A stretch of 52,527 bases of DNA from Kiritimatiellia bacterium (GCA_045545855.1 JAZQBR010000274.1:1-52527); one strand, 5' to 3'; shown: positions 39,402 to 47,763, counted from the first letter of the stretch. Program-made: numbers and translations. Notes: generated from the sequence alone by a model not told the origin.

Positions 39402-42400
39402 TTAGTCCTCCTCGTCGCTGGGGGCGGACTTGGCCTCTGTATCCTTCACGTCAAGCGAGCCCATCGGCACCTCGCGGCCCCGCACATCGACGAGACGGGT
39501 CGTCACGAAGATGAGCAGGTTGCGCTTTGAAGTCTGCTCGGAGTGGCTGCGGAAGAGCCTGCCGACAAACGGGATGTCGCCTAGGAACGGTATCTTGTCA
39601 TCCATCGCCTTGCGCGCCTCGGTAATCAGGCCGCCCATGACGATTGTCGCGCCAGGATAGACCGAAACGGTCGAATCGATCGAGCGCACATGGAAGAACG
39701 GCTGTTCCATCGGGGCGTCGTAGTAGGTCATATTGTCGCCCGAGCTCGTGGCCGAGAGGCTGTCGAGAGCGGTCGTGGCCGAGTTGACGGCCGACTCTGC
39801 GAACGTCGCGCGCATCGTGTCGTTAAGACCGGTGCCAAGCGTTGTGAGAACAGCCGAAAGACCGGTCAGAATCTCGCCGATGCCGGCGAAGCTCTGGAGC
39901 GACGAGCTGTTGCCCGTGAAAGGAATTCTCATACCATAGTTTTTCCATGTCGGCTCGTCGACAACCTGGGTGTTAAGCTTTAGGTCGATAAGGTTGCCGT
40001 CGTCTGTAAGCGTCGGCGTGACATCAAGGATGACACCGACCTCGCGCATCGTGAACGATTGGGGCTCGACAACAGCGAGAATCGCCGACTGGCTACCACC
40101 GCTGCCGTAGCCGCCGCTCGACGAGCTGGACTGCAGCTGCACGTCATAGTCCGTCGGGTAGATATACTCTGTCACCACCTTGATGACCGCTTCCTCGCCG
40201 GGGCGCGTAAGCACCTTTGGCGCGGAAAGGAGATCGGTGTCGCTGCGCTGCGAGAGCATGTGCAGAATCATCGACAGGTCTGCAGCGCCAAGGAACGCAT
40301 TCACCTTCATGAACTTGTCGTTCGTCGACCTGCCCTCGCCGGAAATGTGGTTGGAGAGCGTGTCAAGGTAGCGATTGGCACCGCCCGTGAGCTCTGAGTC
40401 GCCGCCCATGCTGCTGATGCCTATGTTCTTTCGGCCCGGGGTTCTGTCACGAATCCACCCGGCGCCATTGGACCTGGCGAATACAGTCTTCGTGGAGCTG
40501 AAGGCGGTCTGAGAGACGGGCACGGTGGTAGTAGTGGTCGTTGTGACACCGCCTATGTTCTGCACGTTCTCCTGTCCGGCGGTCGCAAGGGTCTGGCTGT
40601 CCCAGCTCGTAGTGGTCTTGGCGGAACCGTCAAAAGAGCCCCACGTGCCGCGCCTCAGACCGAGCGCCTGACCGACATGGCGGCCTACGCCGAGCGTGTA
40701 GTCGCTGTTGAGAATCCACTCGAAGCCTAGAGAGTTCAAGTCGTCCTGGCAGACTTCGACGAAACGCGCCTCTATTTCGATGAGCTTCGGGTCGGCGTTC
40801 ATTTCGGTCAACGCCTGCTCAAGTTCGGCCAGGTTCTCGTAGGTGTTCTTGACGCGAAGTTTGCCGATTGTCTTGATGTACATGATGGACGAACCCTCGG
40901 GCCATTTAACGCCCAGAAGCGAGAAGAACTCCTTCCAGTCGCGTTCCTGGCTCTCCTCGCCGTCATCGCGGCGACTCGCGTTGGACGCGCCGCCGAAACC
41001 GCCGGAGCGCATTTCCTTCATATCGCTGGAGGCGGAATCCATCCTCTCCATGAACGAGGAGAGCACGGGGTAGCTGCGAGTGACCATTTCCTCAATGGCG
41101 GCGTCCTTGTGCATGACGACGACCATGGAGTTTTGGACCTTGAACTTGTACTCGACAGATTCGCAGACGAGCTTCAGCGCCTCGTAGAACGAGATATCGC
41201 TCGCGGTAATCATCGGGATGACAGGCACGCCCGACTGCGCGCCGGCACCGCCCTCGTCGTCTTCGGCGGCGAAGCCCGACGACTCCTCCTCGACGGCAGC
41301 GGTGGCCCTGATAGCCTCCGGCGGCTTGAGGAAGAAGTTGAAGCCGCGCTGTTCAAGCGGGATTTCGGGACGGTCGTAGTCCTTCGAAGCAGTGCGGAAG
41401 AACTCGACAGCGTCGATAATCGTAGCCGGCGGCTTGAACGAAATCGCCGGCAGGCGCATCTCCTTCATGCGCTTGATGATTGTTTGCTCGGCGGAGCGCT
41501 CGGGATCCTTCGGATCGACCGGGCCCGGCCTTGTCTCCTTCACATCGTCGACCTCGCGCGCGTCGACCGCGTAGACGGGGCGCCACGCCTTGTCTACATC
41601 GGCCATCATGCCCTCGCGGGCACTCTCCCGCTCCTGCATAAGAATCGTGTGGCGCTTCTTCTGGATTGTCTTCATTATGCGAAGCGCCTCCTGGTTGTAG
41701 GGGTCGGTGACCAGCACGAGGCCGCACTCGTCGGCAGCCTTGTCGAGCTGCCTGGATGAGATGTACTGGTGGGCGCGCTTGAGATGCTGGTTGTTCTTGG
41801 CGCGCTGGGCCTTGTACTCGTCTTCGTTGCGGAGCGTCTTAATCTCAGAAATATCAGTCTTGTTGGCGTCCGGGTCGCCAGCGGCCTTCCAAGACTGGAG
41901 TTGGCGGCGCGCCTTGGGGTGGCGGCGCGCGACGGCCTTGTCCATGGGCTTCATGGCGCGCTCGCGGCGGCCCATCGCGTCCTCCTGCATGGCGGCGCGG
42001 TAGAGGCTGTCGGCGATGCCCTGCTCGCACTCCTTGCGCATCTCAGCGTAGCGCGGACTGTCATTAAGCAGCCTAACTGCGAGAGCATAGTGTTTGGCAG
42101 CCTCGAGGAACTCCTCGCTGGCCATACAACGCTCGGCCTCCTCATGCTCGCGCTGCGCCTGGAGCGCATACGCCTGAAGGCTCAGCTCACGAGTCTTGGC
42201 CAGTTGCTCGATAAGTTCCTTGTCTTTTTCGGGGATGAGCGAGTTGTTGGCGGCTGATTCTTCTGCGGGGGCAGCTGTCGACGCCACCTCGGCGGGCTCT
42301 TCGGGTTCCTCTGCCGCAGGCTCTGGCTCGGCCGCCTCGGCGACCTCTTCCGGCTCCTCCGCCTTGGAGTCCTCTGCCTCGGCGGCGGGCTCTTCATCGG

Positions 42401-47016: not shown

Positions 47017-47763
47017 TTACTGCATCACCATCTCGTAGTCGTTCGGGTTCACGAGCGCCCAAACGGTCTTCGACCTGTCAAGGAGACCCTGCCTGCGCTC
47101 AATCATCGGCTCGCCGTTCTGCTTGGCGTCCATGATGGACGAGTTGTTCCAGAAAGCCTTGTCGATGGACTTCGGATGGGAGTCTATGCCCTTGATCTCA
47201 CTCTCACAGTCGCCGGCGAGGACTTCACCGTTCGGGTTTGTGACGACGAGACCAATGGCCTTGGGTTCGCCGTAGCGCTCCAGGTAAGACGGCGGCAGAC
47301 AGACGGAGGCCGCGTGGGAGCCCCTCGGTATGTTGACATAGCTGACGGTCTGGCTGAAGTAGGAGTAGGGCGGCAGCTTCTCGCGGTCGTTCTTGTCCTT
47401 CTCGGTCGCGCTCTTGGTTTCAAGAAGGACGTGCCAGGTGAAGACGAGCTGGTCGGTCCACTTGGCGTCGGTCCTGTACTTGGCCTCGAGGACGATCCAT
47501 TTTCTAGGCTTCGTGAAACACTGCCCGATCACCGAGCCGCCGTTTATGGACGGGGCCGAGAGCGTGGCGGCACGGCCTGTCTTGGGGAACTGCTCAAGCA
47601 CCACCTTGGCCTCCTTGCCGGGGGCGACTTCGTCTTCGGCGACTGCGACGGGCGCTTTGGCGCCGCGCGCGTTGCGCGAACCCTGCGCGCGTTGCGGCGC
47701 GGCGAGAGCAGCGGCGGCGGCAACGGCCGCGACCGCGAAAATCATCGTTTTCTTCATGTTCAT
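47017..47763 (-). CDS. exported 248-aa protein of unknown function, first gene of the pilus-like cluster (Amuc_1102 position)
   Basis: Signal MNMKKTMIFAVAAVAAAAALAAPQ. AAGGAG lies 7 nt upstream of ATG 47763. I recognise no motif. The assignment is positional only. Confidence 0.65.
   Translation of the reverse strand: MNMKKTMIFAVAAVAAAAALAAPQRAQGSRNARGAKAPVAVAEDEVAPGKEAKVVLEQFPKTGRAATLSAPSINGGSVIGQCFTKPRKWIVLEAKYRTDAKWTDQLVFTWHVLLETKSATEKDKNDREKLPPYSYFSQTVSYVNIPRGSHAASVCLPPSYLERYGEPKAIGLVVTNPNGEVLAGDCESEIKGIDSHPKSIDKAFWNNSSIMDAKQNGEPMIERRQGLLDRSKTVWALVNPNDYEMVMQ

Follow-up and report, generated by a model that had tools for sequence, protein, structure and literature searches.

A diverged counterpart, in Kiritimatiellia, of the MUL2 locus (Amuc_1098-1102) of Akkermansia

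We analysed a 52,527-nucleotide (nt) stretch of DNA from a Kiritimatiellia bacterium (GCA_045545855.1 JAZQBR010000274.1:1-52527), the whole of which is referred to as the window, and found that five genes at positions 39402-47763, all on the minus strand and in the order g1-g2-g3-g4-g5, are a diverged Kiritimatiellia counterpart of the Akkermansia genes Amuc_1098-1102. What the analysis shows is homology to these genes, together with the order of the genes, their membrane topology and a synteny that reaches far. In the literature the Akkermansia locus is named MUL2, with Amuc_1102 as MUL2A and Amuc_1101 as MUL2B. An earlier annotation made from the sequence alone (the first-pass annotation) had described five co-directional genes separated by 61, -4, -4 and 35 nt; this layout was confirmed, and both 4-nt overlaps (g2/g3 and g3/g4) read ATGA. 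The five genes are as follows.

47017-47763, minus strand: g1, 248 amino acids (aa), Sec-exported protein of the Amuc_1102 family (MUL2A-like)
45075-46955, minus strand: g2, 626 aa, PilM domain with transmembrane (TM) segment and coiled coil, Amuc_1101 (MUL2B) family
44092-45078, minus strand: g3, 328 aa, bitopic protein of the Amuc_1100 family in the PilO position
43007-44095, minus strand: g4, 362 aa, bitopic protein of the Amuc_1099 family in the PilP position
39402-42971, minus strand: g5, 1189 aa, secretin of the Amuc_1098 family

The best NCBIfam match of each gene was the cognate Akkermansia model, and the models followed one another in the same order, Amuc_1102, 1101, 1100, 1099 and 1098. 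The matches were Amuc_1102_rel for g1 (E 3.8e-5; 23 bits against a cut-off of 55), Amuc_1101_fam (NF045709) for g2 (E 7e-118; 395 bits, cut-off 650), Amuc_1100_fam (NF038287) for g3 (E 6.7e-13; 48.7 bits, cut-off 180), Amuc_1099_fam (NF042425) for g4 (E 2.2e-13; 50.5 bits, cut-off 50) and Amuc_1098_fam (NF042912) for g5 (E 1.9e-123; 413 bits, cut-off 750). Together with the structural matches to Amuc_1102 (7DSZ) and Amuc_1100 (6LAD and 6KNY) and the Pfam records PF28178 and PF28028 presented below, these ordered matches bear out the suggestion of the first-pass annotation that the set corresponds to Amuc_1102-1101-1100-1099-1098. The membrane topology that it had assigned was likewise recovered in a hydropathy scan, with signal-like N-termini in g1 and g5, an internal TM segment in g2 and N-terminal anchors in g3 and g4. 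Its framing of the cluster as an unassigned and oddly pilin-less machine was overstated. NCBI already names Kiritimatiellia homologues after the Akkermansia families (P0020 is an 'Amuc_1100 family pilus-like protein' and P0195 an 'Amuc_1099 family pilus-like system protein'). The occurrence in Kiritimatiellia extends the known MUL2 system, and was already implicit in the NCBI annotation.

The first gene has no counterpart in the classical pilMNOPQ operon and stands here as an extra gene at the head of the cluster. The hydrophobic, signal-like segment at the N-terminus of g1 is of the Sec type and is followed by an Ala-rich linker, an Ig-like β-sandwich (approximately residues 51-226) and a C-terminal tail ending WALVNPNDYEMVMQ. 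No match to g1 was found in our local copy of Pfam; PF28178 (Amuc_1102) is on record for P0033, a cluster representative 100% identical to g1. The AlphaFold2 (AF2) model of g1 had a mean predicted local distance difference test (pLDDT) score of 70.7, and most of the 10-residue blocks into which the core was divided scored ~80-93. When this model was searched with Foldseek, the top match was the crystal structure of Amuc_1102 (7DSZ; E 2e-9), with ~20% identity and a target-normalised TM-score of 0.65; the next match was six orders of magnitude weaker (E 1e-3). Only structure comparison reached 7DSZ: a single-sequence phmmer search of the PDB with g1 returned no Amuc structures, and the g1 family profile, compared with the PDB by sequence, returned nothing. 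The family is small: in an exhaustive HMMER search of 1.84 billion representatives, its profile retrieved 264 clusters (50% identity). Its sequences form a continuum from g1 to distant members that score above the Amuc_1102_rel cut-off, and the C-terminal tail is common to them.

This tail, R-x-G-x-L-x-R-S-K-T-x-[WF]-A-L-[VI]-N-x-[ND]-D-Y-E-x-[VI]-x, is nearly invariant throughout the family, and the last ~25 residues (...RSKTPFALINxDDYExIK-COOH; 47017-47100 of the window in g1) are the most conserved part across very distant members of the Amuc_1102 family. As a conserved element that was left unplaced in the AF2 monomer model, the tail finds its simplest explanation in an interaction surface, and it probably serves in interaction or assembly. 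The literature consulted on the locus contained no mention of this motif.

The second gene encodes a PilM domain fused to a PilN-like segment. The match to PilM_2 (PF11104) had an E-value of 9.7e-39, and the score against TIGR01175 was 165 bits, above the cut-off of 133 bits. An actin-like ATPase-fold domain (residues 1-345) is followed by the motif AINLLPP and a single internal TM segment (residues 373-391). Beyond a coiled coil, the C-terminal part holds a small conserved domain, which in this organism is split by low-complexity inserts, as judged from the conservation profile. These matches and the position of AINLLPP before the TM segment agree with the fusion through an INLLP-TM-coiled-coil segment that the first-pass annotation had read in g2. 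The Amuc_1101_fam profile (608 positions) matched g2 along residues 3-475 (profile positions 5-477), a stretch that begins in the PilM domain and takes in the TM segment and the coiled coil. Since the alignment to the model runs on to position 477, the fusion of PilM, TM segment and coiled coil is a trait of the family. A separate PilN gene is absent from the cluster, and no match to PF05137 was found with Pfam.

The third gene, g3, has an N-terminal TM anchor (residues 8-26) and the same topology as PilO. PF28028 (Amuc_1100) is on record for P0001, which is 99% identical to g3. A hidden Markov model built from 17 g3 relatives and compared with the PDB gave the Amuc_1100 structures 6LAD and 6KNY as top matches (E 0.0035, over ~210 residues), and a single-sequence phmmer search of the PDB with g3 returned no Amuc structures. 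In the literature Amuc_1100 is described both as PilO/PilN-like and as a TLR2-active 'pili-like' protein, and it is reported to have been seen on the outside of Akkermansia cells by immunofluorescence. With a median identity to relatives of 32%, g3 evolves faster than any other gene of the cluster.

The fourth gene, g4, is anchored by a TM segment (residues 15-37) and has no lipobox. The anchor is followed by a four-Cys knuckle, two TSP3 Ca-binding repeats and an all-β C-terminal domain (residues 193-360). The TSP3 repeats are the only Pfam match of g4 itself, and TSP3_bac was found in 30/30 members of the g4 family, in which Cys97, Cys106, Cys117 and Cys122 are invariant. Because this part of the protein is expected to be periplasmic, the cysteine residues probably form disulfides and do not bind zinc. 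The same cluster (residues ~94-122; 43700-43830 of the window) gave weak zinc-ribbon-like Pfam matches in several relatives. A single-sequence phmmer search of the PDB with g4 returned no Amuc structures.

The secretin proposed as the last gene of the cluster was confirmed by a match of g5 to PF00263 (E 2.8e-32). Residues 252-1168 aligned to positions 21-803 of the 805-position Amuc_1098_fam profile, leaving outside the model an acidic, low-complexity N-terminal extension of ~250 residues. Part of this extension is encoded by a repeat found with Tandem Repeats Finder:

42482-42734, minus strand: 21-nt tandem repeat, 12.8 copies with 74% matches, in the 5' part of g5

The repeat encodes acidic heptads rich in E/A/P/V in the periplasmic N-terminal extension, and the region that follows has no Pfam match; no AMIN domain was found in g5 with Pfam. 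A second in-frame ATG lies six codons into the g5 open reading frame (ORF), and from it a more typical signal peptide begins (MTNLRNLVAI...). The secretin core was as close to GspD as to PilQ secretins in a sequence search of the PDB, and the scores against TIGR02515 (PilQ; 112 bits, cut-off 284) and TIGR02517 (GspD; 124 bits, cut-off 351) both fell under their cut-offs.

We then compared the neighbourhood of the cluster among relatives. In the window the cluster lies in a same-strand run, ackA-pta-kpsF-[cluster]-coaE-rho, which the first-pass annotation had described as uninterrupted and which Pfam confirmed, with intergenic gaps of 13-50 nt among the neighbours on both sides (ackA, pta and kpsF upstream; coaE and rho downstream). 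The flanking genes are as follows.

47777-50998, minus strand: kpsF-pta-ackA, identified with Pfam, the run upstream of the cluster
38847-39386, minus strand: coaE, dephospho-CoA kinase (PF01121, E 2.8e-33), downstream synteny partner
37273-38823, minus strand: rho, with Rho_RNA_bind and ATP-synt_ab domains, downstream synteny partner

A genome scan, restricted to one genome per species, yielded 80 loci, from which a synteny table was made by tblastn. By their record titles, nearly all of these loci come from gut or rumen metagenome-assembled genomes (MAGs) labelled Kiritimatiellia/Kiritimatiellae, 'Verrucomicrobia' or 'Lentisphaerae', with Hadza human, yak, sheep, goat and chicken as hosts. 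A few carry other titles (L007, L009-L011 and L013; Gemmiger, Lachnospira, Faecalibacterium, Azospirillum or Barnesiella), and these contigs are probably mis-binned. The full order ackA-pta-kpsF-g1-g2-g3-g4-g5-coaE-rho was found in most of the ~80 genome loci, in which the median identity to the proteins of the window was 62% for g1, 60% for g2, 32% for g3, 40% for g4 and 59% for g5. A second scan, of metagenomes with a profile of a distant sub-family, gave 44 loci; most of the long ones keep g1-g2-(g3)-g4-g5-coaE-rho, with g1 only 27-36% identical. Thus the neighbourhood survey that the first-pass annotation had proposed showed that the order from g1 through g5 to coaE and rho is kept in most genome loci and most long metagenome loci, and g1 was the first cluster gene in every locus examined in either scan. 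Where coaE-rho is missing, the genes downstream of the secretin are unrelated housekeeping genes. The upstream run kpsF-pta-ackA occurs in nearly all of the ~80 genome loci but not in the distant metagenome loci, and its linkage to the cluster is limited to the gut/rumen Kiritimatiellia clade.

The arrangement of seven genes (the five machine genes with coaE and rho) is therefore common to gut/rumen Kiritimatiellia and most long distant environmental loci. Akkermansiaceae MUL2 loci are drawn with a secretin, dephospho-CoA kinase and rho in a figure legend of a 2026 ISME J survey (PMC13174399); this survey covers the class Verrucomicrobiia only and leaves Kiritimatiellia unmentioned. Set beside Akkermansia MUL2, the present cluster has the five cognate families in identical order with coaE-rho downstream in both, g1 has the Amuc_1102 fold, the g3 family matches the Amuc_1100 structures, and g2 aligns to Amuc_1101 through the coiled coil. 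The differences lie in the strong divergence (~20% identity between g1 and 7DSZ), in the host, which belongs here to a gut/rumen Kiritimatiellia lineage outside the surveyed class, in the additional acidic repeat extension of ~250 residues in g5 and the low-complexity inserts in g2, and in the upstream genes, which are ackA-pta-kpsF here, whereas Akkermansiaceae loci are drawn with 3-dehydroquinate dehydratase among their genes. The PilM-PilN fusion, a Ca-binding g4 with its Cys knuckle and the invariant tail of the Amuc_1102 family are kept across this distance, and provide comparative constraints for mechanistic work.

As to function, MUL2 is reported, in papers citing the primary study, as needed for the acquisition or uptake of mucin in Akkermansia, and Amuc_1102 is described in the literature as archaeal-pilin-like. 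The statement of the first-pass annotation that no fibre, substrate or mechanism had been assigned to this type of machine was therefore out of date, although it held for the physical mechanism. Akkermansia is a leading next-generation probiotic, and few of its proteins have received as much study as Amuc_1100 and its neighbours. The distribution described above suggests that the MUL2-type system is an old envelope device of the Planctomycetes-Verrucomicrobia-Chlamydiae (PVC) group for complex glycans, and not a host-interaction organ specific to Akkermansia.

The reading that we favour, with somewhat better than even confidence, is that the cluster is a MUL2 counterpart in which a scaffold of PilM-N fusion, PilO-like protein, PilP-like protein and secretin acts together with g1 and with unlinked filament genes in the capture of glycans. 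The comparison with the PilMNOPQ proteins of type IVa pili (P. aeruginosa and M. xanthus) is consistent with such a scaffold, since gene order and membrane topology are the same, g2 lies above the TIGR01175 cut-off and carries INLLP, the last gene is a secretin and the g4 model gave a weak PilP-like fold signal (E ~0.12). In g2 the cytoplasmic PilM domain is followed, within one polypeptide, by a PilN-like INLLP motif, a TM helix and a periplasmic coiled coil; g3 in the PilO position and the Ca-binding g4 in the PilP position are bitopic inner-membrane proteins, with g5 as the outer-membrane secretin. Thus placed, g2, g3 and g4 could form an alignment scaffold from the inner membrane to the secretin, like PilMNOP or GspL/M/C. 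The PilM domain would recruit a PilB/PilT-type ATPase and a platform protein encoded elsewhere in the genome, and a type IV filament would be driven through the secretin. This filament or pseudopilus may capture complex glycans and perhaps aid their passage through g5, in line with genetic reports on MUL2 and mucin in Akkermansia, and g1 may dock to the machine or to itself via its conserved tail. Of this scheme, we infer the contacts between the proteins, the reliance on unlinked genes for an ATPase and pilins, and the role in glycan acquisition.

A number of observations count against this reading. Four of the five genes score under the NCBIfam equivalog cut-offs and only g4 reaches its own, so they are to be taken as distant family members and not as demonstrated functional equivalents; the glycan-acquisition role in particular would be carried over by analogy from Akkermansia. 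Sequence similarity to PilO or PilP was not found: g3 itself has no match in the local Pfam copy, and permissive Pfam scans of 17 g3-family members (E<=10) and of 30 g4-family members gave no PilO (PF04350 in the case of g3), PilN, PilP, GspM or GspC. The same scans uphold the view of the first-pass annotation that the middle genes are not ordinary PilO and PilP genes, as canonical matches were sought family-wide and none appeared. When g2 and g3 were compared as possible PilN/PilO paralogues, hhalign of the C-terminal region of g2 against the g3 family gave a probability of 9%, driven by the TM segments, and nothing was obtained for the same region of g2 against g4, or for g3 against g4, g1 against g4 and g1 against g3. 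The g4 model (mean pLDDT 74.5) gave nothing at E<=1e-3 with Foldseek; its highest-probability matches were both PilP (2LC4, probability 0.96; 3JC8 chain Pa, probability 0.98), but at E ~0.12 they are statistically weak, so that a PilP-like fold of g4 is suggestive only. Further differences from type IVa pili are the fusion of PilM and PilN, the nature of PilP, which is a lipoprotein whereas g4 is TM-anchored and carries TSP3 repeats and Cys motifs, and g5, which has no AMIN match and scores under the PilQ cut-off. Finally, g1 has no class III signal motif in regular-expression scans, which rules it out as a type IV pilin of the classical kind. Two six-frame regular-expression scans detected no class III (prepilin) signal motif anywhere in the window, a Pfam scan found no T2SSE/PilB, PilT, PilC or prepilin peptidase (PilD) among its ~30 other large ORFs, and ATPase genes adjoin the cluster in just 1 of the ~80 genome loci and in 0 of the 44 metagenome loci.

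These absences from the locus carry less weight than they might seem to. Canonical pilMNOPQ operons are unlinked to pilA, pilBCD and pilT, and so are also without pilin and ATPase genes. The claim of the first-pass annotation that no pilin, ATPase or platform gene is present in the 52 kb was correct; its treatment of the absence as a remarkable trait was not, given the canonical operons and the one related locus with linked ATPases. This locus, L032, was the only positive when the window and related loci, 1.49 Mb in total, were searched for linked pilins and ATPases with regular expressions and tblastn. It lies in MAG UBA3761 (contig DFGB01000032.1), in which ATPase genes directly follow the secretin at 18390-20683 and replace coaE-rho. 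The first, ~170 nt past the secretin, encodes a PilB-type ATPase of 554 aa with T2SSE and MshEN domains (E 6e-137), and the second is a fragment (gene start) of a PilT-like ATPase. PilB/PilT-type motors thus exist in the lineage, and their genes can lie next to the cluster. A filament-less machine, as might be deduced from the missing pilin and ATPase genes, was for these same reasons (the canonical operons and L032) rejected as the principal interpretation.

The architecture of the cluster also invites comparison with type II secretion systems (T2SSs), in which GspL is a fusion of actin-like, TM and periplasmic parts, GspM is bitopic, GspC is a bitopic secretin adaptor and GspD is the secretin. 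The layout of g2, g3, g4 and g5 parallels this series, and they could accordingly be equated with GspL, GspM, GspC and GspD in an exporter that pushes folded periplasmic cargo (glycoside hydrolases, sulfatases or g1) onto the cell surface; the growth defect that Akkermansia MUL2 mutants show on mucin would then reflect failed export of enzymes or adhesins and not failed import. In their architecture, the fusion of PilM and PilN-like parts resembles GspL, and g4, anchored by a TM segment and not a lipoprotein, resembles GspC; the equal similarity of the g5 core to GspD and PilQ, the Sec-exported and folded β-sandwich of g1, the location of the cluster among constitutive housekeeping genes and the high abundance of the Amuc_1098-1102 proteins in the Akkermansia envelope, as reported in the literature, are all compatible with export. 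However, no match to the GspL, GspM or GspC families was found, g2 is above the PilM cut-off and has the PilN-type INLLP motif, and the GspD model matched g5 far under its cut-off (124 against 351 bits). Genes for pseudopilins, GspE and GspF are not linked to the cluster, no GspC, GspM or pseudopilin genes were found at the locus, and the PilT-like retraction ATPase of L032 is typical of pili rather than of type II secretion. We consider such an exporter unlikely, though it is the strongest of the alternatives.

The prominence of g1 raises another possibility, to which we give little credence: that the apparatus is self-contained and independent of pilins, with g1 polymerising through its tail by strand or tail insertion and leaving through the secretin while g2-g4 act as a gate. 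In all loci examined g1 heads the operon; this position, its lack of a class III signal and the nearly invariant tail, which AF2 did not place in the monomer, would all suit a subunit of this kind. The 7DSZ entry contains three chains, and in the literature Amuc_1102 is modelled as a homotrimer; no pilin gene was linked to the cluster in any of ~120 loci. Such polymerisation in the periplasm would nevertheless lack an energy source, the good conservation of the cytoplasmic PilM domain points to a motor partner in the cytoplasm, and PilB and PilT adjoin the cluster in L032. In addition, the conservation of g1 (median identity 62%, compared with 32% for g3) is unusually high for an exposed major fibre subunit, and Akkermansia is reported to have separate predicted pilins, encoded elsewhere in its genome, that are needed for colonisation in vivo. 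It is correspondingly improbable that MUL2-type machines are a distinct class of secretin-dependent apparatus in which the Sec-dependent Amuc_1102-like protein, and not a class III signal pilin, is the exported or polymerising subunit, assembled or docked by its tail. If this were true, the machine would capture glycans by a fibre or conduit specific to PVC bacteria, with only its PilM-N/O/P/Q scaffold borrowed.

The least likely alternative is an outer-membrane glycan channel without any filament, in which the secretin and its inner-membrane tether would be a large regulated pore for the 'selfish' uptake of oligosaccharides or glycopeptides and neither an ATPase nor a pilus would be involved. 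The literature describes a MUL-dependent build-up of mucin fragments inside Akkermansia and the uptake of fucoidan by relatives, which would suit a pore, as would the absence of pilin and ATPase genes from nearly all loci. Against it, the conserved ATP-binding-fold domain of PilM would be left with no role, and L032 ties the cluster to PilB and PilT. Moreover, secretins are not known to work as importers without a type IV filament, which again counts against a pore.

Within the five-gene cluster no terminator-like sites were found on the minus strand, and an Rfam search of the window returned no families. One promoter-like site was located by a consensus scan at the junction of g4 and g5:

42989-43017, minus strand: promoter-like TTGAAC-17-TATAAT, 10/12 matches

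Judged by its sequence, this may be a candidate internal promoter for the secretin gene g5; in the region overall 6 promoter-like sites were found against 2.8 expected, an enrichment that is not significant.

The other large ORFs of the window, ~30 of which were scanned with Pfam, are housekeeping genes or genes for glycan and protein degradation, among them those for CstA, a lipid A acyltransferase, CorA, PheS, GH127, ClpX/P, trigger factor, RecA and UvrA, together with a C10 peptidase of 1424 aa and a Listeria-Bacteroides-repeat protein. The C10-peptidase protein (28123-32397, minus strand) lies downstream of uvrA. The Listeria-Bacteroides-repeat (Flg_new) protein, of 704 aa (35288-37402, minus strand), comes directly after rho and, from its listed start, shares 130 nt with the end of that gene; as a Flg_new protein also follows rho in the related loci L001-L003, it may belong to the conserved neighbourhood. 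No Pfam match at E<=0.001 was obtained for two large minus-strand ORFs, at 7301-10603 (1100 aa) and 15920-18571 (883 aa); their neighbours are glycoside hydrolase-like genes (GH127 and a weak GH42 match) and a gene for an AraC-type regulator.

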